Origin: Botryllus schlosseri
Lineage: Eukaryota
Reading direction: 5' to 3'
Assembly (NCBI GenBank): GCA_051294905.1
Contig: CM119372.1
Location: 30,506,001 to 30,566,000 of the forward strand
DNA length: 60,000 bases
Shown piece after piece: positions 1-46,386 of the stretch (positions are counted from its first letter, which is position 1; every line of letters begins with the position of its first letter). Made by a program: the position numbers and the translations under genes. The notes below the pieces were generated by a model. It searched no databases. It saw nothing but the letters and a program-made list of their open reading frames with translations, and was not told the DNA's origin.

Positions 1-1209
1 TAATTACAAATTTGTCACGTGATCGAAGCTGTGTATGGTGCAATATCACTAGCTTTGGACTTGTCTACGGTATTACCCATTGCACAATACCGTAACGTTC
101 GCTCGCACACCCCATTATGCTGTCACGGTTCGCTCTCCTAACCCACACCCATTAACACCCATTATGCAATCAGCTGACACAATCATTGTCAATACAATGA
201 TGGTCACGCCCGTTATTGACATATATTGTCACCCATTGTCCCTATTGAAGCACTATTGATATAACTCTTTCGCGCGCTTTTCTCTGTTTGATTTGAAATT
301 CAAAAGTAGTCACGTGATCAAATGCTGCGATTTGATTGGAGCGGAGCTGGATGAGCACTTATATACTACTTTCAACAATTCATATCGTACACCCTGATGT
401 GGTGCTTCGTACCCCGATGGGGTCTTCGGACCCTGGTTAAGAACCCCTGGAATAGAAACGTCCAATAGTCGAATAATTCATTGGTGTTACAGCTGTAGTG
501 CGTAGGCCTGCTGCTACCGTACTCGCCACCGATAATAACATGGATAAAGAGAACAAACACCCAGAATGTAACCAACTATACGACACGGGGTCATAGAATG
601 CCAATGGTTGCCATACTGACCTGACTTCATAGTTATATACCCTAAGCAGCGCATGCTACGACCTTTTGATATATTATTAGGCTCCATGACAGTTTCATAG
701 ATTGTTACGTCCGTAGAATTAACAAGTCACAGTTCCGATTCGCAAGTCCTTGTCTGATTTTAACGTTTGACCCGACTCAACTCGAGTCATATTTATTAAA
801 TCACCCAGTCAATCCGAAATCGAGTAATTTTACGAGAAGGTCGCAACAAACCAAATCACAATCATCAGTGACGAATCATCAACGGGTCTTGTTCTATCAT
901 CATTAACTAAAAATATGATGTAATAGCTGATCTTCTCCCGCAGGGTAGCTTTTAAAAGTGATGTTATAGTGAAGTTTGTTAAAATTCTAGTGATTTTTAT
1001 AGTATTTTCAGATAGAACTTTTAGCTCTTACATCTAAAAAAGAGATACGACAATTGAATATATTGTTAAATACTTGAAATTCCTAAATGCCGTTGCGGGC
1101 CGCATAAAATGCTCTCGCGGGCCATGTGTTTGAGACCTATGCTGTAGTCTATACGTATTTGAAAGCCATTCATTTGAAAGCCTTGACACCTTGCCAAACT
1201 ATAACCTGA

Positions 1210-3570
1210 ATTCGAGCGTATCGGGTCCGTTGGACAGCTTGCGCCACTTGGATATCGCTGAAAATCGGTGTGCTGTTACGTTTAACTACAGGCTATAGGT
1301 ATTTGAAAACCATTCGTTGACACAGGTTATAGTTTGAAAATTTTCGAATATTTTTCGTGCATAAATTTGAATTTTCATGACTGTGCATTCGAGCGTATCG
1401 GGTCCGTTGGACACCTTGCGCCACTTGGATATCGCTGAAAATCGGTGTGCTGCTTGGCGTAACTGTAAGCTATAGATATTTGAAAGTCATTTCTTGACAC
1501 AGGTTATAGTTTGAAAATTTTCTAATATTTTTCGTGAATAAATTTGAATTTTTATCACTGAGCAGACGAACGTATCGGGCCCGCTGGACACCTTGCGCCA
1601 CTTGGATATCGCTGAAAATCGGTGTGCTGTTACGTTTAACTACAGGCTATAGGTATATGAAAACTATTCCTTGACACAGGTTATAGTTTGAAAATTTTCG
1701 AATATTTTTCGTGCATAAATTTGAATTTTTATGACTGTGCATTCGAGCGTATCGGGTCCGTTGGACAGCTTGCGCCACTTGGATATCGCTGAAAATCGGT
1801 GTGCTGTTACGTTTAACTACAGGCTACAGGTATTTGAAAACCATTCCTTGACACAGGGTATAGTTTGGCAAATTTCGAATATTTTTCGTGCATAAATTTG
1901 AATTTTTATGACTGTGCATTCGAGCGTATCGGGTCCGTTGGACACCTTGCGCCACTTGGATATCGCTGAAAATCGGTGTGCTGCTTGGCGTAACTGTAAG
2001 CTATAGATATTTGAAAGTCATTTCTTGACACAGGTTATAGTTTGAAAATTTTCCAATATTTTTCGTGAATAAATTTGAATTTTTATCACTGAGCAGACGA
2101 ACGTATCGGGCCCGCTGGACACCTTGCGCCACTTGGATATCGCTGAAAATCGGTGTGCTGTTACGTTCAACAACAGGCTATAGGTATATGAAAACTATTC
2201 CTTGACACAGGTTATAGTTTGAAAATTTTCGAATATTTTTCGTGCATAAATTTGAATTTTCATGACTGTGCATTCGAGCGTATCGGGTCCGTTGGACACC
2301 TTGCGCCACTTGGATATCGCTGAAAATCGGTGTGCTGTTACGTTTAACTACAGGCTATAGGTATTTGAAAACCATTCCTTGACACAGGGTATAGTTTGGC
2401 AAATTTCGAATATTTTTCGTGCATAAATTTGAATTTTTATGACTGTGCATTCGAGCGTATCGGGTCCGTTGGACACCTTGCGCCACTTGGATATCGCTGA
2501 AAATCGGTGTGCTGCTTGGCGTAACTGTAAGCTATAGATATTTGAAAGTCATTTCTTGACACAGGTTATAGTTTGAAAATTTTCTAATATTTTTCGTGAA
2601 TAAATTTGAATTTTTATCACTGAGCAGACGAACGTATCGGGCCCGCTGGACACCTTGCGCCACTTGAATATCGCTGAAAATCGGTGTGCTGTTACGTTTA
2701 ACTACAGGCTATAGGTATATGAAAACTATTCCTTGACACAGGTTATAGTTTGAAAATTTTCGAATATTTTTCGTGCATAAATTTGAATTTTTATGACTGT
2801 GCATTCGAGCGTATCGGGTCCGTTGGACAGCTTGCGCCACTTGGATATCGCTGAAAATCGGTGTGCTGTTACGTTTAACTACAGGCTATAGGTATTTGAA
2901 AACCATTCCTTGACACAGGGTATAGTTTGGCAAATTTCGAATATTTTTCGTGCATAAATTTGAATTTTTATGACTGTGCATTCGAGCGTATCGGGTCCGT
3001 TGGACACCTTGCGCCACTTGGATATCGCTGAAAATCGGTGTGCTGCTTGGCGTAACTGTAAGCTATAGATATTTGAAAGTCATTTCTTGACACAGGTTAT
3101 AGTTTGAAAATTTTCTAATATTTTTCGTGAATAAATTTGAATTTTTATCACTGAGCAGACGAACGTATCGGGCCCGCTGGACACCTTGCGCCACTTGGAT
3201 ATCGCTGAAAATCGGTGTGCTGTTACGTTTAACTACAGGCTATAGGTATATGAAAACTATTCCTTGACACAGGTTATAGTTTGAAAATTTTCGAATATTT
3301 TTCGTGCATAAATTTGAATTTTTATGACTGTGCATTCGAGCGTATCGGGTCCGTTGGACAGCTTGCGCCACTTGGATATCGCTGAAAATCGGTGTGCTGT
3401 TACGTTTAACTACAGGCTATAGGTATTTGAAAACCATTCCTTGACACAGGGTATAGTTTGGCAAATTTCGAATATTTTTCGTGCATAAATTTGAATTTTC
3501 ATGACTGTGCATTCGAGCGTATCGGGTCCGTTGGACACCTTGCGCCACTTGGATATCGCTGAAAATTGGT
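1210..3570. repeat. 177-bp tandem satellite, about 13 monomers, with a 3-monomer (531-bp) higher-order repeat
   Basis: GATATCGCTGAAAATCGG recurs every 177 bp (1251, 1428, ...). The variant monomer TGCTTGGCGTAACTGTAAG occurs at 1451, 1982, 2513 and 3044, exactly 531 bp apart. Confidence 0.95.
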
Positions 3571-4667
3571 GTCGAATATTTTTCGTGATAAATTTGAATG
3601 CGCCACTTGGAGATAGTTGACAATTTGTGTGGTGTCAGATTTGCCTGCAAACTATACATATGTGAACGCCATTCATTGCCACAGTCTCTAGTTTGGAGAA
3701 GATGGACTCGATTCTAAGTTTAGTGACTGTTTAGTTGAGCGTATCATATAGTTTAGAGACATTTGAGGTACGGCGTTTAGCGTGTCGGAGCAATATTTGT
3801 TTTGTCAAATCCAGATTTTGTGTGCTAAAACTACATTTTGCGAAATTTCGTTTGCAGCAGAGCGATACCTTGCAGCTGTGAAAATTTCATGATGGAGATA
3901 GTCATTCGCGAGATAGCTGTGTTGAGTTAACAGTGTTGAGGTGCTAGTCGAGCTTATATTCTTTATTAGTTGTTTCACAAATGACGTGATGCGATAAAAT
4001 CAGTCGAGTATTTATACGCTTTATTGATTTGAAGGCAATTTAATGAGTATTTCACCGTAACCTACGTCGAAACATCGTGTGTGGCCGATGGCTGCCCCGC
4101 GGCATGGCCGGAAACTTGATCCTGGTGATATATCCGATACCTGCGGTATTCTACACAGTAGTTCTGATATTTATTTTTGATGGCTAGAATTTGATGGCTA
4201 ACTTCGTCCCGGTCACTGGAATCTGTATGCGTACGCGGGCTGACTTCTGCTTTATCTTGCTTTTGTCGGCAATTAAACTAGCAGTGAATAAAGGTCTGCA
4301 ATAGTGCATAGTCATAACCGAAATTGACGCGGAAACATTTTATCACATCCTTTGATAATCTGCAATTTTGAAGTTGTTATTGATGTTGTTTGTAATGACT
4401 TTGAAAGTATAGTCAATAGTCATTGATGTGTTAAGTAACTCAAAAACCAATCCAAATTATAAGCGTGCTCATCACATGGTATATAATGTATTGATAAGAT
4501 GAGCATGTATCAGCAATTAAGTAAACTGGTTTAGTGGTTTGCACAACGCATCAATTTGATATACTCTGGGATTGCATCTCAGACTAGGACAGGTCATGAT
4601 TGGGTTTCGTTGGGAGCACAGTTGTTGATCACGTGAAACAGCAATCGTTGGGCATGCTCATGGGGAC

Positions 4668-9995: not shown

Positions 9996-12900
9996 CTCGC
10001 GATTACTATATGACTCATCATATCTATCACCCATGAATTATTAGCGGGCATGCAAAAAAAGCCGAAAAAGGTTTACGTATAGACTAGAGCAGTGCTCTTC
10101 AACCTTTTTCGACGTGGTACACCCTTTTAACGTTTGCTCAAAACTCGTACACCCCTGTTCATTAGGGGTCTTCAAAAATGACTATTTTTCTCAAATCGTA
10201 CTGGCTACTTGATAAAATTGTTAGGCTACCTAACTTAAGCCTACACACCAAATTTGGTTCAATTCCAACTAGTAGTATAGTAGATCGGTCGTGACGGGCT
10301 ATGGGGCTCTTATGGGCGGGGTCGCATGCTAACGCGAAACCGGGGGTGGCATGCTAACGTTTTCGTCTTATGGCGGGGGTGGCATGCTAACGTTTTCGTC
10401 TTATGGCGGGGGTGACATGCTAACGTTTTCGTCTTATGGGTGCGGTCGCATGATAACGCGAAACTCGTGGTGGCATGCTAATGTTTTTAGGTATACGTGC
10501 GGCGACATGCTAACGACGATAAATGTGTCTGTCATGTATTCTTACGGGATCTGTGGCGACTCGCCATGTGTTCTTGCGGTCGTGATTCGTACTTTCAGGC
10601 ATCTCTCGCGCGGTGTTGAATATGTACGAGTCACCAACAATAACCGCGCGGACGGAAACGTGGTTTGTTGTGAGGATTAAGCAGTGCGTGCGACCTATAT
10701 TTCGAATGACCTGTGCGCTGAATTGTTTCACGGCCAACCGCGGTGATCGCGACTCGCCTTTTTTACTATAGGTGGTGACGGTGATTCGCCTGTCGTGTAT
10801 TCTTACGGGGTCTGTGGTGACTCGCCATGTGTTCTTATGGGTGCGGTCGCATGCGGCTATTGCGGGGGTGGTGAGCGGCTATTGATGCTAACACGAAACC
10901 CGGGGTGGCGAGCGGCACTTATTTCTTATGGCGGCGGGTCTTATTTCTTATGGGTGCGGTCGTGATTCGTACTTTCGGTATAGACTGCGGGCGGCATGTC
11001 GTACTTTCAGCAAAAAAGGTGTGAAATAGTTTGCCAAGTCTAGGAATCACTTGCAAGGTAATATTTTGGTATTTAGTTTACCACAGAGCCGGCGTAGACG
11101 GTGATTCGAATATCAACAATAACAACGCTCACGAATTAACACTTCAAATAGCTGTGAAATAGTTTGCAAAACCCCGCGATCGCTGACAAGATAATGTCTC
11201 GGTCATAACCATCTTTCACGACTTGGTGTCATAACCATACCGATCGCTCACGCGGTGAAATTTTAGTAATCAGTTTGTCACAGTACTTGATATCGCTGGT
11301 AAGATTTAACAAGTAACGAATAACAGACCGCGGTAACTTGAATAGCGACAAATTGTCACTTATTTCCGCTCTAACTCTAATCCTTTGTGAAGTGAACGCT
11401 TATTCAAAAGGGTGTGATATAATTTTAAAATCCAACGACCACTCACCGGATAATACTTCAGACATAGCAATTCCTCATACCCGCCTACAAGGTAATATTT
11501 CGGTAATTAGTTTGTCACAGAACCGTCGCAGGCGGTGATTGGAAAACCGACAATTTGTCACTCGCCCGCGATCGCTATATGTTTCACGCCTCCAGAATAG
11601 TGGCTGACTTTAGTTGCGTGATAAGATCCATGAAAATATTCAATCAATGTGTTAGTTTATCAACTTGAAATGAAACTCACTACACAAATCAAGTCGATTC
11701 GTATCTGAATGTTTTAAATCGGTACAACTTTAATCCTTTGACAAATCCCTTACCGCGTTTTTGTTGAATCGAACGTAACCCGAATATTACTGACGCCGAC
11801 TTTCAGCCGCATCGAATTATTCGCACATTCCGCACCACTGTTTTCACACTTATAGAATCAATACCAACTATAACTCTACAAGAATCAAGAATCACAAGTA
11901 TGTGCATTACACAGTTATTGTCTTTATTAACTTGAAATCAAACACTTAACAAAAACACACAACTAATCATTTGGCAACTGTGGCATTACCAAAAAATTCC
12001 AGTATTGTTGATTGAAAATCCTTGAGTCATTATTATCAAAAATGTTATAGTACCGCATCGGAGTCCATTCGCGGGATGTACTAAAGTTAAATCCAGATAA
12101 TCCAAAATGAAATATTTGGACTTTGACATAGTCTGAATTGAAATATATTGACAAACATGACTACCAACTTTGATCCAGTCACATTTCAAGATCATACTTT
12201 GAAACAATCGTTGAAACTTACAACTCTATTCACGACTGAGTTTTCCGTTTATCAAATAGAGTTTCAGTAAATACTATCGCGATATTTTAATGTGTTACTA
12301 CACACAATAGAATCAATCAACGAAATAGCACCTGTTGTAAATATTTCTAACTTGACAACCACTTGTGCGTACCGCGATCGACTTGCGACGCGATGAGTTA
12401 AATCGGAATATTTCAATCTATTTGTCGAAACCTTGAACAAACTATCAGGTTATTTTTTGTTGTAATCGAGTGAACGGAAATAGTATTACGTCTCAACATT
12501 TTAGCATCTTCCCATAAACAAAAGAGTAAAATACAAAAAACCTTGTCAAGTCAATCCGTTTGTAACTTACCCAACCAAAGCAAAAAGTATCCTTATGAAA
12601 AGTAGACAAGACTACGCCAGTAATCACTACAATCCAAAATCCATAACAAGCTCGGTTGTATTCATATCCCTACGACGCGTCTTTTGTTTTTCAACTGTAA
12701 AAGTCGTTACTATTTTGCAAGACAAAGTAATTACTACTTGATATATTTTATAAACCAAAGTAAATACTACTCGGTGTGTGGTTTGAGATTAACATATTAC
12801 ATTTGAGTATACCGGATTTGAATGCCTGACCAACGTAGTTGAGAATTCATTTCTTACAATCAAACGCCGGTTTTACATTGAAAGGTATCATACTGTAAAC

Positions 12901-15089
12901 ATAAGGATTGACACATTGATTTGATATATGAGATTTTGTAATGCTCGACCACGACTTGATTATTAAATTATTCACGATAATTAGACCCGATGTTGTGGTA
13001 AAGGTTATTAGAAAATATCACTTTTGGCATCGAGTACCAGTCGAAGTGGGTGAACAATAACACCGAAAATGATAAATGCGTTTCGTGCTACTATTGATAC
13101 AAGTTCATTTCTATCAGGTGAAATAAACGCCATCACAAAACTCAGAGCATGCAAAGGTCTTGATTGGTATGAATTTCGATTTGTGTCTTATGATTTTAGA
13201 AATATTATGATTCGTTAAACCAAAGTCGTATGTCCGATTATTAATTGATTGGAAACTTGATCACGTACCTCGATCATTACAGAAGATTATAACCCCATTG
13301 TCCGACAATATTTTACAAAAGGATCGAAACCAAGTAACCCAAAGTCGTTGCCGTCGCATAAACAATTTGTACGACGTTTGATAATTGTACCCTATACGTT
13401 GGTGTACTAGAGATATTTGTAAAACACACTCTGGTAAAGAAATCGAAAAGATATCCTACACCTAAATCTGATAAAACCATTTTGCACTTTTTGTTCGTCA
13501 GTAGTATCCATTTTAATTTTCCCATTTCCTCTCGTCAAAGTAGATGTAATCATAGTCACTAAAGAACTTACTTGGATGTGTTTGAATTCTAGACATAGTT
13601 ATGATTTACTCAACGCAAGACCCAAGAACAACCGTAGTTAACAACCGTGCACACATATCCAAAATATCGCACACTCCGCTATTCCTAAAGTACAAACACC
13701 CGATACAAAATATCACTTGTTGCGGCATCATCTTCACAATATCACCATTTTGTTTGTGTCAATTAGTTACTTTGTATGTTATCCCACAACTCTTACAAAA
13801 GTACGAAGGATATTAACATCGCACTAAGTAATTAACTTTACTCGATATTCTCGCATTACGAAACTAAAGAATGGTTGGTTAGACTCTACAAACTGTTTCG
13901 ATATCACAAGACCTTTATTGTCTGAATGGGTGTTCATGTATCTTAATAATCAAATAGTTCAACACAGAACTAGCACTAACAGAAACATCAGAGTTGTTTA
14001 CACAAAAGTTTGTATGTGTACAGTATGCGAATACCATGTGTAAGTCCAGCACAATTGCAGTATCCATTCGAGTTTAGTCAACACAAATTTATTACAACGG
14101 AGCCACGTAAACTTTCGGGAAAGAAAAGCATACTCACTTCCAGAGGGTTATGTCAACACCATAGCAGTTCCCCAACAACAAAGTACATATGTTTCTAGCC
14201 ACGGTCCTTACATCTTTCACATAGATCAATCTACTTTGCTAACGAAAAGTGCTGAGTCATCACATGATCGCTCTCACAACAAAACAGCTAGTAGATATTA
14301 TCATTCAAAATACTCCTAACCCTTTACACACCAGTGACAAATCATACAACGAATATGCTTTGCGGGTCGAATTGTTGTTCAGTGTCAAGTCTACCTGTTG
14401 AAACGTACATTAAACAGCGCAATCCAATTAAAACCACGAATCTATTTTCATTTCGTCACATACAGAAAAATAAATTTTCTTTCTCCAACACATACTTGTA
14501 ACCAATCGCTTTCATTAAACACACAACACCATAAAAGTATTTACTTTCTACAACATAGACATTCCGATGTAGTCAAGAAATATTTTTATTAATCAAAATC
14601 ATCGATTTCTGATCACGGCGTTAGTGTGTGCATGTCATACCTGTGGGCCCCGTATTAAAATGGACACGACACGACTGACTGTAAGGAGATAGAAGTCTAT
14701 CACATCGATTTACATGTGGTCTTCGCTACGGTTTCAAAAAACGAATCATCTCTTTTGCATTGATCTAGACCGAGCAAGTTAGTTAATGGCCATGATTGTG
14801 TTTGTCATATGCGAATGATAGGGTTACTGTCAAATCTACATACAACAATCTTCTGACGATCATAATAGCAATTTCATTTTCCGCCCCTTCATAATTGTAC
14901 AACTCGGTAACTACGTTTAACAAGACCAATCACACTACCGGCGTTGAACACAAGATACCTACCCAAGTAAAAATATCATTCTGGTTTCGACAACTGACGT
15001 TTACCTGTGTAAAATTATCATTTTCACTTGGAGGTCCACCATTACCTAACTAAAATACCATTGTCCTTTGGAGATTTATCGTCTACCCA

Positions 15090-15680
15090 GTGTAACAATC
15101 CCCTTTTCACTTGGAAATCTATTTTTGGCCTGAATAACAATCCCCTTTTCACTTGGAAATCTATTTTTGGCCTGAATAACAAACATCTTTTCACTTGGAA
15201 ATATATTTTTTCTCTTGGTAACAAACCTTTTTCACTTATAAATATATTTTTTCTCTTGGTAATAAACCTTTTTCACTTGGAAATATATTTTTTCTCTGAG
15301 TAACAAACCTTTTTCACTTGGAAATATATTTTTTCTCTTGGTAATAAACCTTTTTCACTTGGAAATATATTTTTTCTCTGAGTAACAAACCTTTTTCACT
15401 TGAGAATATATTTTTTCTCTGGTTAACAAACCTTTTTCACTTGGAAATATATTTTTTCTCTGGGTAACAAACCTTTTTCACTTGGAAATATATTTTTTCC
15501 CCGGGTAACAAACCTTTTTCCCTGAGCAACAAACCTTTTTCACTTGCAAATATATTTTTTCCTGGGTAACAAACCTTTTTCACTTGGAAATATATTTTTT
15601 CCCCCAGGTAACAAACCTTTTTCACTTGGAAATATATTTTTCCCTGGGTAACAAACCTTTTTCGCTTGGTGATCCGTCGT
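15090..15680. repeat. ~41-bp minisatellite in the left arm (AACAAACCTTTTTCACTTGGAAATATATTTTTTCTCTGGGT)
   Basis: Unit starts at 15301, 15342, 15383, 15424 and onward. Confidence 0.9.
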
Positions 15681-18299
15681 TTACCTGAGTAAAAATATCA
15701 TTTTCCTTTGGGGATCTGGCGTTTACCCAGTGTAACAATACATTTTCTCTTGGTCATCTAGCTTTTCCTAGAGTAACAAAACCATTTTCATTTTGAAATC
15801 TGACAACCACACCGACAATTTGATATTTTTGTATTTTCTTACAGCGAACAGCGACAAAATATACACCAACAACGACTCCGATACATTTGTCTAATCAAAT
15901 ATTCACTTGTGTTGGTGCATCCCATCAAAATCGTCGGTTACCCACATGCAATGCGCTCTTGTACACAGAAATGCATGTTTTGGAAAATTGGACAATAGGC
16001 TTCGATAGTTCTGTGATGTCCGGGTTCGTGCTTTGGATTTTCCAGAGTCAAAATGTCTGAATAAAACACCTCCTTGACGATGGTTGGTATGTGGATAACG
16101 GTGTTCGGAAAACGGTTGGATTTATGTCACCCATCGCGATAACAATTCCAGGTCGAGTTTTCCCCCGCGCGTTTACTATATTGTGTCTTTATTGGTCAAT
16201 GTATGTCTCGACATTCAGTTTGAAATCGGAAACCCTCATAAGTATGTAACCCGATCCGGATATCAACTCTGAATCGATAAACCAATGAACAATATTCAAA
16301 GTAAACATGTTACACCCTGTGTTCCCACGAAAAAATACCATCCAGACATACGTCGCGCTTGTTTGCCCACATCAGTATACGCGTAAATGGAGGTGTGTGA
16401 CATTGCATGCAATGTGTTGGTATACAAACATCGATCCACAGACATTATCATAGCCGGTAGTTTTGATGTAGATCGAATGTCATCACACCCGATAACAATG
16501 TCATACCAATAAGCCACATTGCAATGACTCTGAGTCCGCGCTATTACATCGATATTTCGACACCGTTTACTGATTTACTCGATGGTGTTATCGTGTTGTA
16601 ACATTACAAGCTAGTCGTGGCCCTATCTCCGGACAGACCACCCAGACCAATTGGATACATCGATCAATGTGTTGTCCACACCGAAGTTTTCTGCTGTAGC
16701 GTTTGACCATGGTGAACTATCGAAGTGGTGCTCGAAATGATTGCGATCAGTCTTTCAGTCACGATGCATGGATGTCGCTACTCCCACATAACGACTCCAG
16801 ACAAATATCGTGAACAGTGATTATGCAAATCTCGGACTGATACTGTGATCCAATAAGGTGTGTTTCTGTGGAATGAAGACTGCAATCGTACACCACAATA
16901 TAACACTACCTCGCGATTTCACACGCAATCATAAAACACATCATCGTAAGGATTCAGTTCGTCCGGTGACATTTCGAAACGGTCATCGCCACAAGAGATC
17001 GGTATCATTTTGAAAAGACATCGTCACAAGGCTATTGACGTCGATTCTGTTGGTCATGTCAATCCGTTTCACAATCCGCCGTTTTTCAACTCCCCGCACC
17101 ATAGTGTTACGACACAGACAAGAAGCGTCGGTGGAAATAATAAAACACGGAAAGCACACTTTGGTGTTATTTGACATGGATTTTACACCCGACGAACCTT
17201 ACATTCGAGCGATGCATTGGAATGACGCTTGTATTATTGACGTAGAAGGAACAGAAATGTATCGATTTATTGGTTTCGTACATATCCAACAAAAACCAGG
17301 GTATGTGATTGTGCGTGGTTCGCATATTCGACTGTGAACGCTCTATTGGTATATGCTGTATAGTTCACTTTCACCGTCGTGCGAATAACCCATGTTACGG
17401 TTCGATGTTTGTGTGTCTGTATGTCACGCTTCAGATTGACTCAGAGTCATTGCAATGTGGCTTATTGGTATGACATTGTTATCGGGTGTGATGACATTCG
17501 ATCTACATCAAAACTACCGGCTATGATAATGTCTGTGGATCGATGTTTGTATACCAACACATTGCATGCAATGTCACACACCTCTATTTACGCGTATACT
17601 GATGTGGGCAAACAAGCGCGACATATGTCTGGATGGTATTTTTTCGTGGAATGTAACATGTTTACTTTGAATATTGTTCATTGGTTTATCGATTCAGAGT
17701 TGATATCCGGATCCGGTTACATACTTTATCAGGGTTTCCGATTTCAAACTGAATGTCGAGACATACATGACCAATAAAGACACAATATAGTAAACATGCG
17801 GGGGAAAACTCGACCTGGAATTGTTATCGCGATGGGTGACATAAATCCAACCGTTTTCCGAACACCGTTATCCACATACCAACCATCGTCAAGGAGGTGT
17901 TTTATTCAGACATTTTGACTCTGGAAAATCCAAAGCACGAACCCGGACATCACAGAACTATCGAAGCCTATTGTCCAATTTTCCAAAAAACATAAACGTC
18001 GATGTACAACAGCACATTGCATGTGGGTAACCGATGATTTTGATGGGTTGCATCAGCACAAGTGAATATGCGATTACACAAATGTATTGGAGTTGTTGTT
18101 GGTGTATATTTTGTCGCTATCCGTTGTAACAATATACAAAAATATCAAATTGTCAGGTGTGTTTGTCAGATTTCAAAATGAAAATGGTTTTGTTACTCTA
18201 GGAAAAGCTAGATGACCAAGAGAAAATGTATTGTTACACTGGGTAAACGCCAGATGCCCCAAAGGAAAATGATATTTTTACTCAGATAAACCACGGACC

Positions 18300-18720
18300 A
18301 CCAAGTGAAAAAGGTTTGTAACCCAGGGAAAAATATATTTCCAAGCGAAAAAGGTTTGTTACCTGGGGAAAAAATATATTTCCAAGTAAAAAAGGTTTGT
18401 TACCCAGGGAAAAAATAGATTTCCAAGTGAAAAAAGGTTTCTTACTCTGGGAAAAAATAGATTTCCAAGTGAAAAAAGGTTTCTTACTCTGGGAAAAAAT
18501 AGATTTCCAAGTGAAAATGATATGTTTAGCCAGGTAAACGACGGACTGCCAAGTGAAAACGGTATTGGTACTCAGGTAAATGATAGTTTTCCAAACGAAA
18601 AGGGTTTGTTACCCAGGGAGAAAATATATTTTCAAAAGAAAATGATTAGTTACTCTAGGTAAAAGTATTTTTTCAAGTGAAAATAGTTTTTTGCTGTAGG
18701 AAAAAAATAGATTTGTAAAC
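18300..18720. repeat. Inverted counterpart of the ~40-bp minisatellite in the right arm
   Basis: AAGGTTTGTTACCCAGGGAAAAAATATATTTCCAAGTG-like units; fewer and more divergent than in the left arm. Confidence 0.88.
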
Positions 18721-21700
18721 GACAAGGGTTTGTTACTCTAGGAAAGGATAGATCGCCAAGCGAAAATGATAATTTTACACAGGTAAACGTCAGTTGTCCA
18801 AACCAGTATGATATTTTTGACTTGGGTAGGTATCCTGTGTTCAACGCTGGTAGTGTGATTGGTCTTGTTAAACGTAGTTGCCGAGTTGTACAATATACTT
18901 TTCGTGTGTATACAATTACGAAGGGGCGGAAAATGAAATTGCTATTATGATCGCCAGAAGATTGTTGTATGTTGATTTGATTTGTCGGAGTAGCAAACCT
19001 AACATTCGCATATGACAAGCAAAATCATTACCGTGAATACATGTAACTGGCTCACTCGGTCTCGACCAATGCAAAATAGATGATTCGTTTTTTGAAACCG
19101 TAGCGAAGACCACATGTAAATCGATGCGATAGACTTCTATCCCTTACATTCAGTCGTGTCGTGTCCATTTTAATACGGGGGCCCACAGGTATGACATGCA
19201 CACACTAACACCGTGGACAGAAATCGACGATTTTGATTAATAAAAATATTTCTTGACTACATCGGAATGTCTATGTTGTAGAAAGTAAATACTTTTATGG
19301 TGTTGTGTGTTTAATGTAAAGCGATTGGTTACAAGTATGTGTTGGGGAAAGAAAATTTATTTTTCTATATGTGACGAAATGAAAATAGATTCGTGGTTTT
19401 AATTGAATTGTGACTGTGTTGTTTTAATGTACGTTTCAACAGGTAGACTTGACACTGAACAACAATTCGACTCACAAAAAATGTTTGTTGTATGATTTGT
19501 CACTGGTGCGCAAAGGGTTAGGAATATTTTTGATTTACTGCTATGGCATTGACATAACCCTCTGAAAGTGAGTATGCTTTTCTTTCACGAAAGTTTACGT
19601 GGCTCCGTTGTAATAAATTTGTGTTAACTAAACTCGGATGGATACCACAATTGTGCTGGACTTACACATGGTATTCGCATACTGTACACATACAAACTTT
19701 TGTGTAAACAACTCTGATGTTTCTGTTCGTACTAGTTCTGTATTGAACTATTTGATTATTAAGATACATGAACAATCATTCAGCCAATAAAGTTCTTGTG
19801 ACATCGAAACAGTTTGAAAGCGGTGCCAATCATTGTACAGGTTTGTAGCATGGGAATATTTTTGTGTGTCGTGAATATCTTTCGTATACACTTAGTATGA
19901 AATGAGATAATAAGTAGTGTCTTACAAAAGTAAAACATGTTGTGTTTGATTGCAGACTTTTTATCGTTGTTCGTTGTGGTTTTGAAAGATGGATGAGTTT
20001 ACATTTAAATATAGTAAGCAGAACAACTCAAGTAATAAATTTTACTCGTTTGAAAATACCGATCAATGGAGTAGCAATATCAATATGGGTGGTATATTAT
20101 TTTTCGCGATATGCACCAACCATCTAAGTATAACTTTTCAAAAATTTATCATGTCATAGAAAAGTTGGTTTTTATGAAATCGAAACAAATATACTTCGAT
20201 TATCACGACAAAGGAATTGAGATCAACGCAGTATTTCGAAATGGTATGTTCTGCAATCGCTAAATATCAAACTGTGCATACAACTCGGTTAGGTAAACGA
20301 CCCAGTTACAAGTCGGATGTATTCTTGGTGTACAGATGGCAGTCTGATGATGTAAAGCTCAACCACTCTAGCGATTCGAAACAATTGTGCTTCGATTATT
20401 ATGATGATGGAAATTACGATCAACGGAGTATTTCGAAGTGACTGTGTATCGTTCGGTATGTTCACCAATCGCTAAATGTCGGTTAATTAAACGATACAAA
20501 TGACAGCTTGATGATGGTAAAGCTCAACCACGCAAATGTGTTCATTGCAAAGTATTTGACACAAACAAAATATCGAATGGAGACCATCACATTGGTTTCA
20601 TTTCGAGTGAGTGAAAATTGTTTTCTGTTGACCAGGTAGGACACATTTGACAAACATCGTGCACATTGTATCTTTGTGATGGTAACGACTTTCGGCGACT
20701 TAGTTTCATGTCGGGAATTATTATTTGAGGGTTCAAAAAAACAATCAATACTACAAATGAACAACAATGCAAAACACGTTTAGCAAATAACAGTGTGGCA
20801 AGTACTTTTTCGATATTACGAGTGTTGGGCACTAGACACTTCTAGTTGAATTGGATGCATCTAACAAACATGTCCCAATTTACTTTTGTAATGATCAAAG
20901 TCTTGCAACCTCGCGATATTTTACATTTAGCATGTTCTATAGAAAGTGTGAGCGGAGTTGAGTATTAATCGTGTACTTGGCATAGTGCTTTGATATCAAA
21001 GAGATATTTTCACACTGTGTAATGTTTCAATTCTCTGTTGCGAATTCCGACAGTAACGACATTGATGTTAAATCCTCGCCCGTGGTTATTGTAAGTGAAT
21101 CCTAAACATCGCAACAGTCGGTATGGAAATCGAACGCATGCATACTTTTAGATAGGTGACACTAACAAGTTTATTACATCCGTGAAATACTCTGAAACGT
21201 CGATTCGTGATTGTGTTAGCTATATTCATCTTCCATATCTGTGGACACAAAGATTTCTTAACTTTGGTTACAGCTCATTCGAAACGAATTGTCGCGTGCA
21301 ATCTAAAAAAAGCACAAGTCGAAGACGAATGATTTGATTTCAATGAACTAAAAAGTCCTTTTGTTTTGATGTTGGATTTAATACAATTTGTATGACTATG
21401 TCGAGTCCGATTCCGAAAGTGAAATGTTACTTTAGTAAAAAAATTCGATGACTCGCATTATGATATTGATAGATGTGTAGAGTAATATGACTAGTTTATA
21501 GAATCTCGGTAATGTTTTTTTTTTGTCATGTCTGTGATCAACAAATATGTGATCAAGTCTTACCATTCGATATTAACTTTCGCAGTCGGTGTAATTTGTT
21601 GAAGTAACAATACCGACGAGTTCAATAATATTCTCCATCGACGCATTCGAATAATCCGTCAGCTGCAAGCGGATTTAAAACTCGATGCCGTTTTGTGGTT

Positions 21701-24700
21701 AACTCAAGTCAGTTGCCGCGTGCGTGTTGATTTCAGGAATGATCATGACTTGTTTCCTGGGTAGATTAGTTATTGTGTTTGTAACTATTACCGTAAAGAG
21801 TTGCTGACATTCCAATATCTTTTACGCTGTCATATACGGATTCAATTGTGCTAATTTAATTCTCAGTTATTGTTCTGGCATTCAAATCTCGTATGCTCAA
21901 AATATAATAGGTTTATGGTCAAGTCGCATATGTACCAATTAGTAAATAGTCTGTCTTACAGAGTAGTATAACGACCTGTATACAGTTGGATAAAAATTAT
22001 CGGTCATATGAATACAACCAGATGAATTAATTCAAGTTTGCTAGTTGTACTGATATAATCAAGTAAGTGAAAACTAGATTTTTAACACTGGTGTTTGTTG
22101 TGAATAATTCTTTTGAGTATGGTAAGATGTTAAAATGTCTCTTTGACAAACGGAAAGCCTGATCGCGAATAGAGTTGTAATGTTTCATTACTTGTTTCAA
22201 GTCAATGTGCGTATAATATCGAAATGGTACTTGGAAAGATGAAAGATGGTAGTCATGTTTGTCAATCCTATTTCAATTCAAACTACACCAAAGTCAAAAT
22301 ATTTCATTTTTGATTATCTCAGTTTACCTGTAGTACATCTGACGAACGGATTTAAAGTTGACAAATTACCAAAATGATTGAATATTATCGGGTTAGAGAT
22401 AGTTGGTATTGATTCTATAATTGTTAAAACAGCGGTGTGGAATGTGTGAATGATTCGGAGTTAGTTGGTCAAGTCAAGTAATATTCAATTTCAAAAGGAT
22501 TATACTCTTAAAAAGATTCGAGTTATACCAACAATTGACAATTTGTGGGTATTCAAGTCGTTGCCGTTGTGGTTCTGTTATTCCTTACCCTTGTGAGTGA
22601 TCGTGGGATTTTACAATTATTTCACACCTATTTGAGTATGCGGTAACCACACAAAGGATTAGGGTTAGGACGGAAATAAGTGACAATTTGTTGCTATTCA
22701 AGTTACCGACACCGGCGGTTCTGTTAGTCGTTACTTATTAAATCTTGCCAGCGAAATCAAGTTCTGTGACAAACTGATTACTAAAATTTCACCGCGTGAG
22801 CGAGCCAACACGAGTTTCCAATACGACATGCGAGAGATACCTATACTTGAAAGTACGACGTGTGAGCGCACCCATAAGAACACATGGCGAATCACCACCA
22901 CAGCCTATACCTGTAACGTTATCATGTCGTCGCGTCCATAAGAATAACGATATATCATTGTCGTCCAAAATATTACTTATGCGTAATTCCTACCTTTGTA
23001 ACACCAAACCACGAGAGATGACTAATGTTTTCAACCGCGGAATACTTGGATAATTTTGGCGATGATAAAAAAGCGAATGATACGATTGTACGTGCTTTTG
23101 TGAAGAGTTTGATTTCAGAGTAATAAACGAATGTGTAAATGTATATACTTGTGATTCTTGTTGCGACTGTGAACAGCAGACTATTCTGTAGGCGCGAAAC
23201 AGCGAATAAGCCGAAAGTATTATTCAGCTAGCAGTCAATAGCGAGGAAAGAGAACACGATCGGTCATTTGACACGACTAAACTACGACATCATATATCAT
23301 AATTTACAATCAAACTATTTCGCACTGACTGGTCTAGTGTAATATTCGATAGTAGCACGCGGTTGGCCGTGAAACAATTCAGCGCGCAGGTCATTCGTAA
23401 TATAGGTCGCACTGCTTAATCCCCTTGCAAGCACGTTTCCGTTTGTGCGGTTATTGTTGGTGACTATTCAACACCGCGCGAGAGATGGTTGAAAGTGCAA
23501 GTACGAATCACGACCCCGAGTTTTCAATACGAGTCGCCGCCCCAGCCTATACCCAAAAGTACGAATCACGACCGCGTCCATAAGAACCCATTACGAATCG
23601 CGGCCCCGAGGGGGTCTGAAAGTACGAGTCGCCACCCCCGGTTTTCAATACGAATCGCCACCCCGCCATAAGCACCCCAGGCACCCCCAGACTATTTCGT
23701 AGGCGCGAAACAGCGAATAAGCCGAAAGTATTATTCAGCTAGCAATCAATAGAGAGGAAAGAGAACACGATCGGTCCTTTGACACGACTAAACTACGATA
23801 TCATATATCATAATTTACGATCAAACTATTTCGCACTGACTGGTCTAGTGTAATATTCGATAGTAGCACACAACTGCACGGAAACAATTCAGCGCGTAGG
23901 TCATTCGGAATATAGGTCGCGCTGCTTAATCCTCACAACAAGCCACGTTTCCGTTTGTGCGATTATTGTTGGTGACTATTCAACACCACGCGAGAGATGC
24001 CTGAAAGTACGAATCACGACCGCACCCATAAGAACACATGGCGCATCACCACATATCTCGTAAGAATACATGGCGCATCACCGTCACCGCCTATAGCAAA
24101 AAAGGCGAGTCACGAACACGAGTTTTCAGGCACATCACCACCGCAGCCTATACCAGAAAGGGTACCATCATCACCGCATCCATAAGAACACATGGCACAT
24201 CACCACCACAAGGGGGGTCAAAATGGGTACCATCATCACCCCGGGTTTTCAGGCACATCACCACCCCGCCATAAGCACCCCATAGCCCGTCACGACCGAT
24301 CTACTATACTACTCCAACTAGTAGCCGCCTTGCTACGGGAGAAGAAAGTTTCTATTTATTATACAAAAATAAATAACGAAAAATTTGAAATTTTTCTGTT
24401 CACCCCATGAAAGTATTACGTTGTCTATAAAAACTATGTTCTTCAAATTTGGTTCAATTCTGACCAGTAGAAGCGTAGTTATTGCCGTCAAAAAATTTGG
24501 ATTTGAATAAAATAGTATTTGGTCACAGAGTCTATTCGCAGCCAGTTAGGCAGCCCGCCACGCGAATTGGAATTTATTTCGTGTCAGAGCAAAAACAGCA
24601 TGACATTACGAACGATAATCAACCTAAATGTAACAGTATTGGGGAGAGAGTAGGTAAAGCTACTGCTGCAGAAGCGGTAATTCAGATCAGCGATGATAGC

Positions 24701-24955
24701 AGGCGCACCAGCCTACTGCGTATCAGGCCTGCCCCACACCACACCACACACAGTCGATAGTAGCACATGGGCCGCAAGAGATGTCAGTAACTTCAGATCG
24801 TATGCCGCTATACACAGTCTATTGTCGCTAATTTACATCACTAATAACAAAATACTAAATTGCAAATGTATGGCGAAAGATTGGACATACAATCGGCATT
24901 TTGAAACAAAAGGGAAGCTATTTCGACCCTGGCTGGCTACGTCACTTCATTTATG

Positions 24956-25922
24956 CAGTGTTGGGATCAAGTCACTACCTTCGAGTCACGAGTCATTTCG
25001 AGTCATTGCACATTTTGACTCGAGTCAAGTCAAGTCAATCGATTTCCGAAGGTGACTCGAGTCAAGTCAAGTCACTCGATTTTTGGAGGTGACTCGAGTC
25101 AAGTCGAGTCAAGTCAAGTCAAGTCACGAGTCAAGTCACAATTCAAGTCAAATTGCCTTTTCGAGGTATGAGGCGTGATCACGTCATTGTATTTTGCTAG
25201 CTGTCTGAAATACAGATTGAGTGGTCATTAATTTTGAACTGAGGAAGGAATATAGAGTTAAATATACACGCAAGTCAGGCGCTGTATCGCTCACATATAA
25301 GTAGAGCTAATAAACTACGTAAGTAATTGCACAGCCTCAGTTTATAGTAACCAGCCAAAATAGAGAATAGAGAAACAAATTAGTAAGATGCAATGCATTA
25401 CCCTTTTGCAAATTGATATGATACAATTCGAGCCTGCGCCAATGGTTGAGGACTATATAAACTATTTTCGAATTCAATTTCAATAAAACACGCGGTTTGG
25501 TTAACACAGAACAGAAATGGACATTTTGCCATTACTACTTTACTAAAGTCTAGTTTACGACAACGTAGGCTGTAAGCTTCGATCACTTCGTTTGCGATCA
25601 ATATATTTGTGAGAGAGAAATGGAGGCTCAGTAAAACGCACGATCATTGAATGATTGGTCGCTCTCACGGGTTACACCAGCGTTGCGCGAACAATCCGAA
25701 CATATGCCAGATACAGTGATTTTCATCGACACTGATTACTTGATGACTTGAAATTGACTCGTGAATTTTGCTCCGAGTCACGAGTCAATCCACATTTTTG
25801 ATACGCCAAGTCAAGTCAAGTCAAGTCATTTTAGCAAAGTGACTCGAGTCAAGTCAAGTCATTCGAAAAAGTGACTCGAGTCTGACTCGAGTCAAGTCAT
25901 GACTCGAGTCATCCCAACGCTG
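24956..25922. mobile_element. hAT-type MITE with (CAAGT)n/GACTCGAGTC subterminal repeats
   Basis: TIR CAGTGTTGGGAT...ATCCCAACGCTG; TSD CATTTATG at 24948-24955 and 25923-25930. A second copy is at 46387-47290. Confidence 0.92.
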
Positions 25923-27830
25923 CATTTATGTGCATTGCGGTATTTATTAACGTCGGGTAGGAAGTACAGATTGAAAAAGTCTGAGCTGTCGCGGCGGTTT
26001 CCTCAAAAATCACTAAAATACAAGTGACTAGTAGAACACATGCTTGTTAACTGCATACTTTCCAACACCAAACGGATCCATTGGTCTATTGCCGACGGCT
26101 AAATGAATAGAAGAAATATTTGCTTATGACATCACAATCAAGCGGTGTACAGTATTACACTTTAGATAACATTGTACCATATTGCTCAAACCTGTGCTTC
26201 AACCTGTACTGACCTATAAACCTGCCTTTGTGATAGCTAGCAATCGGCTCATTGATACTCGGATCTGGTACACCCCTGTACACCCCATCCGAGTGGTACA
26301 CCCTTTGCAAATTCTGGTACACCCTAGGGTGTACGACAACCCCGGTTGAAGAGCACTGGACTAGAGCACTAAATATTTGTGAATTCAGGGGTAAACTCAT
26401 TCTTTTAGGTTTTGCCTAGCATGTCGCCGAGAGGACATTATTACTTAAAGTCGGTCTTATGACAAAACCACGAAACCCTTGGTCAAGGAAGGGCGTATTT
26501 CAGAAGACTGCAAGCTTCGCGCAACATAAAGGCTTTCAAGGTGCACACTGCTCGGAAGGTAGCGACCAAGAAAACGAGCTTTGTACTGTTGTACATGTAT
26601 TTCAGTGCAGTGGTTCTCGAACTCGGCCGCGTTAAATTATCAGAAGGGGGGGCGCTAAGTCGAAGTTTACATAAAACAAATTTTGCGCTCCGTGCGATTC
26701 ACCCCCAGCATATCGTTTATGCACTGTGTATTCTCTGATTTTTATATTTCAGAATTCTCTCACCAACAGCCAGAACCTTCCATGCCATCAAACAATCCGT
26801 TGGGATTGCTAGCATTCTGGTTACACTTTTTAATATTGTGTAATATCACGATAAGGGTGGCGCGAAATTTCTCACTATCATAGAGAAAGGCCTGCCTAAA
26901 AAAGCTTGAGAACCACTGTTTTAAAGTCCTAATAGGAGATCGTGGATAGGGGTTTAAAGAGATTTAAATATGTATCATGTTTAACATTGTTTTCAATTAT
27001 GACGGTAATAAATGGATATTTTTAATTAACCGTCAATTTCTCATTACCTAATATCAATACATTCACTGAGCAGTATTTATACTAACAATGTAATTTAGAA
27101 ATAAAATTAAAATACGCTGGAGAGTAAAGCTAATTTTTTCACTCCGCCCGCCAACGTATTAATTTAGAAATAAAATTAAAATACGCTGTAGAGTAGAGCT
27201 AATTTTTTCACTCCACCCGCCAACGTATTTTTTTACTTCTCGTTTGGCCCGCGGAAGAAAATAATTGCCCACCCCTGATTTAAACGTTGGTAATGGACTT
27301 AGAATATCGGTTCCTTTTGGAGTAGAACAAGATGGAGTTGACAATTGTCATATAGCTGTTATTCTACTATGTAATCATATGTCCCTATACTGCACTATAG
27401 ATAACTAACCTACGGATAGATGCGCAACACGTGACTCACGGTCGAGTGATGCGACAACGGCAGATTTGTTGTCGCTTCATATCATGAAACGGGAGCGTAA
27501 TTGCTAATCCCATAGATGACGACCCGAGCGCTCAAATTAAATAAAGTTGATCTTATTTGAAAGCTACAGTCGCGCTGATTCTGATAATATACATTAAATT
27601 TTCATCAAGGCAATGGAACCACCCCGAAATAGCCTTCAAAGCCTGAAAATCGGCATTGTTCTAAACAATCGCAACGGCGCAGCACAATGACCATTATGAT
27701 GACCGAATGACCAATGACCAATGACCGAAATAGCCTTCAAAGCCTGCAAATCGGCATTGTTCTAAACAATCGCAACGGCGCAGCACAATGACCATAACAA
27801 CGGTCCGTGAGTGGTTGCGATCGTTTAGAA

Positions 27831-28668
27831 CAGTGGTTCCCAACCTTTTTATCCTAATTCCCCACTTCCGATTTATTCCTAGCCTTCATTCCCCACCTAA
27901 AATCTCTATATCCATATCTACCCTTTAAAGTGCTACCTCTAATAAAATTTTGCAAGACTTTGCTTAGTAAATATAGTGCGTGCTATTGGTGAGTGTTAAG
28001 ATCCCCGGAATTGATCAGCACTCAATAAAATTAATGCAGCGGTGAACTGGTAACCGTAATATATGTATCTACCCAGGCGCGCAGCCAACAGAAAAATAGG
28101 AGGGTTTGAAAATTTTCCAAATGTTGCGGGGTAGCATCAATTTACATAAGTAAATGCCGAATAATACATGGGTCAGATAAACTTCCTGATGTTGACGAAC
28201 GCATGCGTGCGATATATATATAAGCCGCCGTAAACTACACTTTCGCACAATACTAAAAGAACTTGAAATAACATAAGTATGTAATTTCATTTGTAATGAG
28301 TCCAGATGTGCTATTAATTAGCGAGTCCACGATCTCCCTTGAATACATATTCAGCAATATGTGCTCTTATTACAACGAATCAGAATTTTTCTACCACTAC
28401 GTTTCGTGACCGATGATGATGCACAAATGAATAAAAACATTTCTGGAGATCGCGTGTCGCTATCCAGGCGATTCTCGCTAATTGGAGGCACTGATAATAT
28501 GAATCGCTGAATTGCAAATGAGCTATGAAATATTCGGTCGGCATTTCAAAACGATATTTAATAAAGAAGAATATTACGGTAAAGATTTTTTTAAATCGAG
28601 TCTATTCCCCACCAAAAACCCCGAAATTCCCCACAAGTGGGGAATTCCCCACCGTTTGGGAACCACTG
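27831..28668 (+). mobile_element. 838-bp hAT (Charlie/Buster-like) MITE, copy 1
   Basis: TIR CAGTGGTTCCCAA...TTGGGAACCACTG; TSD GTTTAGAA. Apparently identical to 41848-42685. Confidence 0.96.
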
Positions 28669-28792
28669 GTTTAGAACAATGCCGATTTTCAGACTTGAAA
28701 GCTATTTCGGGGTGGTTCCACTGTATCGCATTGTATCGCATTTTTGTGGTGTATTGAACTGATAAAATTGCTAATAAACCAATGATGATGAT

Positions 28793-29065
28793 ACTTTCCT
28801 GGGTGAACAGAAAAATTTCAAATTTTTCGGTATATATTTTATATAATAAATAGAAACTTTCTTCTCCAGTAGCAATGCGGCTACCCGTTGGAATTGAATC
28901 AAATTTGGTGTGTAGGCTTAAGTTAGGTAACCTAACAATTTTATCAAGTAGCCAGTACGATTTGAGAAAAAAGTCATTTTTGAAGACCGCTAATGAACAG
29001 GGGTGTACGAGTTTTGAGCAAACGTTAAAAGGGTGTACCACGTCGAAAAAGGTTGAAGAGCACTG
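28793..29065 (-). mobile_element. Partial, uninterrupted copy of the hAT element that hosts the 14-kb insertion (empty site)
   Basis: The reverse complement reads CAGTGCTCTTCAACC...AATTCCAACGGGTAGCCGC..., collinear with 10090-10270 joined to 24320-24415. Confidence 0.9.
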
Positions 29066-32835: not shown

Positions 32836-33980
32836 GTGTAGACTGGGGTGAATCTCGCGACGCTGTACGAGATGGACACACCGGAGGCAATATGCCTGTC
32901 ATATATTCAGAAGGATCTTCTTGAGGTCGGTAATCTACATAATCTCGGGACTGAAACGCTGAAAGTACTATTGCAGGGCTCAAAAGAATTTTCTGGAGAA
33001 AACATAAGTCTTGTGGAATATTATGAAAATTGTGAAACTTTTCGAGTATATCCGGAAGACCCGCGTTCCTAAGGCTAGTAACAAGAGATCAACTCATGTA
33101 TTATATTCATCATATCGATAGACTTTGTACAATATCTGAATTTCCGCAAATTATTGAATGGATACGAGAGTCTAAAGAAAGGGAACCATGCTTTCGGAAG
33201 ATATTATCGCATGCAACCACGGCTAATGGCAAATTTAAAGTGAGTTTGTCCACCATGACATTGCATACACCTCGACGTGTTCGAAATGATCGGGGTATTA
33301 ATTGGAAATATTGCTGCTTCATTGGATATCTTGCAGGAAAATTCTCCTGGTTCTTGACGTACTTGAGAATCTCGACAAAATCGCGGATAATTCGGGTACT
33401 GGATATCAAATTGAGGAAACGATGATCGGCTACATTTGCAAAATGTTCGTCAGCAAATTCGACGGTGGTTTGCAAATATGGAAAACCGCTAAACCATGGA
33501 TTGAAAGTAGATTGGAAGTAAAACCGATGGGACTTCGTTCGGGTATTTTGCTCTTTACACCTCCATCAATTTCCTGTGCTTTGTTCGCAGACCATCGGCC
33601 GATACAAGCTTGTGATCGAATCCGCTGAGTTCATGGCTAAACTGATCGAAGTTAGGTTCGATAAGGTCGAAAATGTGCAAATACTAACCAGCAATTAGTA
33701 CAGCCGTTTATCGGGAATTTGCGAACCAATTTGGCCTATCATAACATGAAACGTGATATGTCCGAATCTTCGAAAGTGCAGACTGTTACTGTCAAAAGAG
33801 TTAGAAGAGCAATTTACAGAATCGAACCAGCCATTGAACGAACGATTGCAGAGATCCGAGGAGAGAAGCGAAAAAAGGCATGAAGAGCTTAGACAAGAGC
33901 TGAAATGCCTCAGTGGTTTGAAGGATCATATTCATGTTAATGAGGATTTAATTGGAGAAGCGAATGGACAAATGTGCATG
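32836..33980 (+). pseudogene. Degraded, 5'-truncated paralogue of the BTB gene at 40881
   Basis: Fragments NLATLYE, LSYIQKDLL, MYYIHHIDRLCTISEF.QIIEWIRESKERE.CFR and ELKCLS.LKD.I.VNEDL align to 41218-43470. It has frameshifts, stops and deletions, and the BTB domain is absent. Confidence 0.9.
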
Positions 33981-45887: not shown

Positions 45888-46386
45888 ATTTAACAGCGTT
45901 ATGGATATTCACAGATATTATGTACATAAATAAACTACAATCATATACATAAGTATCTACCTGAATGCTTAAATAACGTTGCATTAATGCAATCAGTTTT
46001 ATGTCAGCCACCTATTGTAAATTCAAAACAATCAGTTAGAATATAACATTAATAATAATTTTTCCTACGATTTTCACTTTTAAGCAATTTAGGTCAGTCT
46101 CTCGAAAGGTTCAATCTATAGTCTGCCACAATATGTTCCTCTCATCTGCTCTTATATATCTCTTTTGTTGCTTTGATGTCTTGGTGGAACCTTTCCCTTG
46201 CTCTTCACTCTAATCTCCAAAATGATCAGGAAATATATCAAGATCACTGAGCAGGAAGTGAGGTATCGTAGTGGTGAGCGACGCCGCTATGTAGGCGGCC
46301 CTCAAAGTCCCGCCGTCGGAGGATATTTTGGGCTCCTCGTCCCACATGTCGCTATTCTTGCGGCGACAAAAAAGCCCAGTAAAAAG

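Follow-up and report, generated by a model that had tools for sequence, protein, structure and literature searches.

The 60,000-nucleotide stretch of the Botryllus schlosseri genome analysed here (GenBank assembly GCA_051294905.1, contig CM119372.1, positions 30,506,001 to 30,566,000 of the forward strand; hereafter the window, whose coordinates are used throughout) harbors a large mobile element with two long inverted arms around a central loop and with ends typical of Maverick/Polinton elements. The element spans 10271-24313 (14,043 bp, no strand assigned), begins with AGTAGTATAGTAGATCGG and has the same sequence, reverse-complemented, at its other end, resulting in AGTAGT..ACTACT tips. It is flanked by two copies of CCAACT (10265-10270 and 24314-24319, both on the plus strand), a 6-bp target-site duplication (TSD) that is exact in 6/6 bases; the chance of a random 6-bp match is about 3e-4. 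The insertion interrupts a CAGTG-ended host repeat, the left part of which lies at 10090-10270 (+) and the rest at 24320-24416. Excising the element with one CCAACT copy restores this repeat, and an uninterrupted copy, representing the empty site, is present at 28791-29065 (-). The insertion is of the transposase/integrase type and has Maverick ends.

The terminal 52 bp (10271-10322, +) are 96% identical to the opposite end at 24263-24313, with 2 mismatches in 51 aligned columns, and likely serve as an origin or integrase recognition site. Beyond these terminal ~52 bp, both ends consist of rearranged modules of 20-35 bp. The left subterminal zone (10300-11010, +) is made of G+C-rich modules that include a 33-bp tandem repeat at 10341-10458, and the right outer arm with its subterminal modules (21802-24313, -) contains an internal duplication (23177-23515 and 23688-24021, 90% identity). 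The motifs TCTTAYGG and GTGATTCG are confined to the two end zones, as determined over the whole window.

The left arm (10271-16536, 6,266 bp) and the right arm (17438-24313, 6,876 bp) enclose a unique loop of 901 bp (16537-17437, no strand assigned). Self-comparison of the window, together with a sensitive arm-to-arm alignment, yielded inverted hits (counted at E<=1e-3) that cover 4,473/6,266 left-arm bases (71%) and 4,294/6,876 right-arm bases (62%); some 0.9 kb of the left arm and 1.9 kb of the right arm are without a counterpart in the opposite arm. The palindrome is thus partial. A first-pass annotation, based on the letters alone, had described the whole element as a giant palindrome. 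Inverted arms do extend over the element, but only 7% of a left-arm-specific segment (12902-13844, +) and 4% of a right-arm-specific segment (19860-21801, -) can be aligned to the opposite arm. The five outer inverted pairs listed in that annotation are real, with 77-89% identity and alignment scores of 54.5-276.5 against shuffle maxima of 28.5-48 (200 shuffles each), as is its inner pair, 13889-16536 with 19816-17438. It had also described near-identity over ~600 bp next to the loop followed by ~2 kb with mismatches and indels, and uneven identity between the arms overall; all of this was borne out by the alignment, in which the profile is blocky and stepwise. Its reasoning makes no reference to the exact CCAACT duplication, to the empty-site repeat copy or to the gene in the loop.

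The 553 aligned columns adjoining the loop contain 7 mismatches, placing the innermost left arm (15975-16536, +) and the innermost right arm (17438-17993, -) at 98.7% identity, and identity then falls abruptly to 91% in the next stretch outward (27 mismatches in 316 columns). The change-point, at L15975/R17993 and about 555 bp from the loop, was matched by 0/1000 permutations. Further out, the left inner-middle arm (13845-15974, +) is 88-97% identical to the right arm, whose own inner-middle part is 17994-19859 (-), with blocks of 89.5-95.7% in 13889-14960 and a stretch, L14169-14306, that has no right-arm counterpart. The left outer arm (11011-12901, +) retains collinear patches of 74-91% identity to 22803-21802, and the blocks in 10533-12901 reach 74-92%. 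Identity between the arms thus broadly declines outward from the loop. Both inner-middle arms contain a 41-42-bp tandem array, with 17 segments on the left (~15020-15790, +; the split into segments is our own) and 13 segments in the version of the right arm (~18170-18790, -). Between the arms, the three units nearest the loop agree at 90-100% and the outer units differ; the left array has grown from one homogeneous unit, whereas the right array retains older, dissimilar units.

The element may or may not be a snap-back defective genome, the halves of which come from one end of a parent and meet at a template-switch point; its arms are homologous and their inner ends coincide with an 11-bp mini-palindrome, GACTCWGAGTC, that is unique to these two places within the window (GACTCTGAGTC at 16526-16536, and GACTCAGAGTC, with which the innermost right arm begins, at 17438-17448). 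Each 11-mer is self-complementary, and the loop is consequently bordered by a repeat that is both inverted and direct, a configuration that could permit flipping or deletion of the loop. In the outer arms and the loop (10271-13844, 16537-17437, 19860-24313), the ratio of observed to expected CpG is 1.3-1.4. It is lower both in the flanks (1.06-1.11) and in the inner arms (0.93-0.99).

Relatives of the element are found in public sequencing runs. Part of its centre is present in 20 of 24 runs listed, which bear three organism labels or come from a seawater metagenome. Four were compared in detail, one RNA run and three DNA runs (X1, which may be the source sample, X8 and X9). All 30 bins along the element are covered in X1, X8 and X9, including both arm-specific segments; every segment is multi-copy. 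Because both arm-unique segments are covered in these DNA runs, the divergence of the arms predates this insertion. A 706-bp contig matches the left-specific segment 12902-13844 with 3 differences (99.6%), and an X9 contig from another organism label (record 22) bridges the junction of loop and right arm at 16698-17504. The display covered sixteen X8/X9 contig records, which were the longest among over 111,000; 15 of these were compared on the arms. They carry 33 differences in 2,717 bases at left-arm places (1.2%, 8 records) and 99 in 1,630 at right-arm places (6.1%, 7 records), putting the right arm about five times further than the left from the displayed contigs. Searches for the terminal pattern gave 0 matches in metagenome contigs and viral contigs, and those for an inner-arm pattern 0 matches in prokaryote genomes.

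Haplotypes that mix left and right types exist, as read variants, joints and a loose end indicate. Among the 40 of 863 read variants displayed, 39 lie in the arms and 22 of these in alignable blocks, where 15 carry the letter of the opposite arm, 5 fall at sites at which the arms are alike and 2 match neither arm. The 15 of 403 joints displayed include strand switches between homologous arm positions, 12167/22238 in X1 and 14832/18987 in X8, and a loose end at 20637 runs on with left-arm-like letters. Relative to the loop, read depth is 0.10-0.69 over R18792-19285 as opposed to 1.5-1.6 over its left homologue, and reaches 1.7-4.7 over L10888-12863; with the tandem array set aside, its overall span is 0.10 to 4.7.

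The longest stop-free frame in the element has 137 codons. Pfam scans in six frames, with stops written as X, covered 11000-15100, 15790-18180 and 19800-22200, amounting to ~8.9 of 14.0 kb. They revealed none of the Maverick core genes (pPolB, integrase, protease, ATPase, capsid) and nothing below E 0.15; the remainder (10271-10999, 15101-15789, 18181-19799 and 22201-24313) consists of repeats or mirrors of the scanned parts. SSB- or Bcl-2-like cargo was likewise not detected in the scanned parts. The loop contains one intact open reading frame (ORF) of 93 amino acids (P0001; 17056-17337, +), which belongs to a small conserved family. Its length is uninformative, as at least one ATG-initiated ORF of at least 93 amino acids occurs in 73/100 shuffles, and it is accepted as a gene because it has homologues. 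Of the 47 candidates in a profile search with it, 6 proteins were returned, of which one shows 99% identity and the other five 48-65%; all relatives are 90-95 amino acids long and align over their full length, with an overall identity range of 45-65% for the divergent ones. Most of them sit on contigs of ~0.9-1.2 kb, the size that would be expected if assemblies break where the arms begin. In 6/6 divergent comparisons, which are not independent of each other, substitutions are more conservative than in neutral simulation (300 simulations per comparison, P 0 to 0.07), and only 7-18% of substitution-only neutral runs remain free of stops. The loop gene is, therefore, read as being under purifying selection, and its product is a candidate for a factor encoded by the satellite.

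Sequence searches of Pfam, PHROG and PDB gave no match to P0001, the best E-value of any family member being 0.009. Two structure models of the loop protein have predicted local distance difference test (pLDDT) scores of 52.6 and 36.2, the better one a low-confidence, all-beta fold, and structure searches gave a best Z of 5.3 and a best Foldseek E of 0.15. The top match, a Pur-alpha-like protein at that Z of 5.3, derives from the pLDDT-52 model and is not above background, and was rejected, as were an AMIN-like structure (TM<=0.57, under the bar) and Atlas feature matches (below 0.9). Matches of long proteins (P0005-P0008) were discarded as well, since their scores are summed over repeats (WD40 and others). 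Pattern scans with the loop protein and arm ORFs produced no confirmed relative among 3, 194, 107, 165 and 140 matches, and none in phages. Neither a 118-amino-acid ORF over the junction of loop and right arm (17421-17777) nor a stop-poor frame at 15930-16371 (-) has a family match. The stop-poor frame has a single match, P0003, in which TGA is translated as tryptophan over window-like DNA and which has the look of a gene-calling artefact. In the frame 16188-15650 (-), called as the 161-amino-acid protein P0003 in a public contig, four consecutive stops are all TGA; this is probably chance, and the frame is shifted in the right arm. In the right-specific segment, the translation of 21430-21767 (-) resembles a protein interrupted by three stops; it has no PHROG, Pfam or PDB match. 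An Rfam search gave 0 matches at E<=0.1, folding of the loop is not clearly above shuffles (-108 versus -100 +/- 4 kcal/mol, 15 shuffles), and a bacterial promoter scan, using a model irrelevant to this host, found nothing.

RNA is near background in the element. In the one RNA run (6% read), its depth is 0-3.8 per strand class, with 1.05/1.3 in the loop bin, as against 70.7/81.4 on the flanking repeat, and no start or end pile-ups were seen in the element. The suggestion in the first-pass annotation that kilobases of double-stranded RNA might form across the centre thus found no support in this run.

In its ends and size, the element resembles Maverick/Polinton elements (polintoviruses). The available part of a vertebrate survey gives (AGT)2//(ACT)2 as the commonest Maverick tip motif, with a 6-bp TSD (PMC8097293), and that of a nematode survey describes Mavericks, characterised mainly in silico, as 13-25 kb long with terminal inverted repeats (TIRs) of 100-1,500 bp (bioRxiv 10.1101/2023.08.22.554363). 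The element has the same tips and TSD length, and its 14,043 bp fall within that range. Unlike an autonomous Maverick, it lacks any core-gene ORF, with its 137-codon longest frame and one 93-amino-acid loop gene without a family match, and in place of TIRs of 100-1,500 bp that enclose a unique, gene-bearing body, it shows 52 nearly perfect bp followed by patchy inverted similarity, 6.3/6.9 kb long, on the two sides of a 0.9-kb loop. Maverick cis-ends, a TSD, the lack of core genes and many copies fit a non-autonomous Maverick derivative. Searches of the open-access literature listed no description of giant palindromic Maverick satellites, with Repbase and most subscription journals lying outside this scope.

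Further parallels exist among the hairpin or snap-back derivatives of linear replicons. Vierula and Bertrand reportedly described, in 1992, a kalilo plasmid deletion derivative that is of the hairpin or snap-back type, and Kapitonov and Jurka are said to have put forward in 2006, by inference, a hairpin/panhandle model for Maverick replication. As described in the available parts of the respective papers, adenovirus replication re-initiates from a folded displaced strand, the panhandle (PMC9863843), and the snap-back genomes of adeno-associated virus (AAV) are hairpin derivatives of a linear replicon (PMC10924063). By analogy with these derivatives (kalilo, AAV, adenovirus panhandle), the element would be helper-dependent, would repeat one end in inverted form, and a single strand of it would form a long hairpin that carries a duplex origin. 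Unlike them, which are extrachromosomal by-products, it is integrated with a TSD, occurs in many copies with diverged haplotypes, and carries a selected gene.

The explanation favoured here, tentatively and with somewhat less than even confidence, is that the element is a helper-dependent Maverick satellite, the arms of which come from two members of the family that were joined before integration. The family would have arisen by fold-back of one Maverick end, an origin already proposed in the first-pass annotation, for which the shared ends, the 6-bp TSD and the mostly collinear arms make a plausible case. An autonomous Maverick would supply in trans the protein-primed polymerase for copying and the integrase for insertion, a mode of mobilisation suggested by the ends and the TSD. 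During replication, the displaced strand would snap back into a long hairpin, the end of which re-creates a duplex origin, in analogy to adenovirus panhandles. Within the family, the arms would have split into divergent haplotypes, between which segments are exchanged by recombination. Parent B would have contributed the right arm from ~17993 outward and parent A everything else, namely the loop, the left arm and ~555 bp of the right arm, with the outer edge near 17993 as the junction of the two parents. The parents would have been joined in their shared inner region by strand annealing or template switching, and the hybrid would then have integrated, gaining its one matching TSD, and have been frozen ahead of re-homogenisation of its arms; the remaining patchy identity would reflect the mosaic ancestry of the two haplotypes. 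A hybrid is the simplest account of a copy with unlike arms, because the family would otherwise keep its arms alike through hairpin copying. A single exchange would account for the abrupt identity step, the unequal distances of the arms to relatives, and the unequal segment depths. A chromosomal crossover between two loci is excluded because the TSD matches. Decay at this locus as the source of the divergence was rejected in view of the 98.7% centre, the intact TSD and the 99.6% contig match of the left-specific segment, and the left part of this copy appears, from sequence comparison, to be young.

Several observations weigh against a two-parent origin. The left-specific segment (0.74-1.51 of loop depth), the loop (1.0) and the outer right arm (0.5-1.5) are near 1:1:1, and the depth columns are sums over contigs, not copy numbers. 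No listed contig spans the element and no second full-length copy is among them, leaving the parents themselves unseen. There is no independence among the contig records compared, one of which, counted for the left arm, falls inside the shared inner block. The existence in this genome of an autonomous Maverick with these ends is an assumption, and a matching TSD equally fits conversion in place.

Homogenisation of a single lineage is the main competing idea. The first-pass annotation had proposed that one old palindrome was repeatedly homogenised at its centre and at its termini. This is not favoured, because the arm-unique segments occur in other copies and segment depths overall are far from 1:1:1; moreover, the centre shows a single abrupt step, and near-identity at the termini extends over only ~52 bp, which end-recognition alone can explain. 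Put as a stable asymmetric lineage, this view is judged rather unlikely. One old fold-back would be stably copied as an imperfect palindrome, with its centre and tips kept alike by occasional conversion and its outer arms too diverged to pair. The nearly equal depths of left-specific segment, loop and outer right arm in all three DNA runs agree with such an asymmetric lineage, as does the broad fall of identity with distance from the loop (98.7, 88-97 and 74-92%), and one recent conversion tract would equally produce the step at 15975. The existence of mixed haplotypes, the depth deficit of R18792-19285 in comparison with its left homologue and the fivefold greater distance of the right arm from the displayed contigs argue against it. 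Long palindromes are fragile, and the hybrid could also have formed in the chromosome if an older resident copy broke and, in the simplest case, its left arm and loop were rewritten from a younger copy without crossing over, keeping the flanks and the TSD. Such a route is consistent with the matching TSD and with the older look of the right arm (6.1% versus 1.2% from the displayed contigs), and near-fixed differences are commoner on the right than on the left arm among the 40 of 863 variants. It requires, however, a tract of ~7.7 kb that stops near the tip of the element and leaves all six bases of the TSD intact, and the right-arm distance may merely mean a rarer subfamily. Ectopic conversion has been proposed for chimeric copies of the foldback-like element Galileo with arms of two subfamilies, but in the available part of that report the 12 such copies, with unusually divergent TIRs, have non-matching flanks and lack the matching TSD seen here (PMC3573991). 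Rewriting in place is, on balance, distinctly unlikely. Galileo is nevertheless the nearest precedent for chimeric arms.

The resemblance to foldback elements raises the question of whether the element is an ordinary cut-and-paste transposon of the FB/Mutator or Galileo/P type, moved by a transposase acting on its TIRs and bearing Maverick-like tips by coincidence. The available descriptions of Tetris, a foldback element of Mutator type (PMC4079207), and of Galileo (PMC3573991) share with it long modular inverted arms, internal tandem arrays, a variable middle, a mostly non-coding sequence, extension of the TIRs by recruitment of inner sequence, and, if the element is indeed a hybrid, chimeras of two subfamilies. 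Their TSDs are 8-10 bp (Tetris) and 7 bp (Galileo) as opposed to 6 bp, their TIRs reach at most ~1.7 kb, far exceeded by an element whose 14 kb lie in the Polinton range, and the tips match the commonest Maverick motif, making this reading very unlikely. In build the element resembles a foldback element, and in its way of working a Maverick satellite. That two copies were merged by the assembler is scarcely credible. High-copy palindromes are hard to assemble and no long read is present in the data, but merged loci would not yield a single host repeat that is made whole about a 6-bp duplication without mismatch, and the X9 contig from another organism label bridges the junction of loop and right arm.

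If the favoured two-parent satellite origin is correct, hairpin-shaped satellites would swap halves. With its two unlike arms and intact TSD, this copy allows exchange of arms outside the chromosome to be told from exchange within it, and conversion from re-synthesis, and its probable two-parent structure makes arm exchange testable; an abundant palindromic satellite would also constitute a population-scale record of hairpin/panhandle replication. A more far-reaching version, possible but doubtful, is that hairpin satellites of 13-16 kb are self-maintaining, free linear germ-line DNAs with their own selected gene of 90-95 amino acids, which exchange half-genomes during protein-primed replication in an animal. 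This copy would then be an integrated, uncorrected hybrid, an intermediate of replication and recombination frozen in place, and would show how Mavericks, whose replication has been characterised mainly in silico, copy their DNA.

Elsewhere in the window, a 177-bp satellite occupies 1207-3572 in 13.4 copies with a three-unit higher-order period, showing 98.7% identity at 531-bp offsets versus ~89-90% at most others. An 840-bp element, which we take to be hAT-like, is present twice (~27829-28668 and 41847-42685, 99% identity between the copies), with CAGTGGTTCCCAA..GGGAACCACTG ends and 8-bp target duplications. The second copy interrupts a BTB-BACK reading frame. The intron-less BTB/BACK ORFs lie at 40869-43862 and 32836-33977 (358 and 416 codons), accompanied by a decayed paralogue that is free of the insertion. 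Reverse transcriptase fragments are found at 36023-37344 (-), and a Rap/Ran-GAP-like stretch at 52890-53354 (-) is probably a host exon. Two related 0.9-kb elements (24955-25911 and 46386-47279, 82% identity) have AGTCA-rich repeats at both ends, and more pieces of this element lie near 57613-58055.

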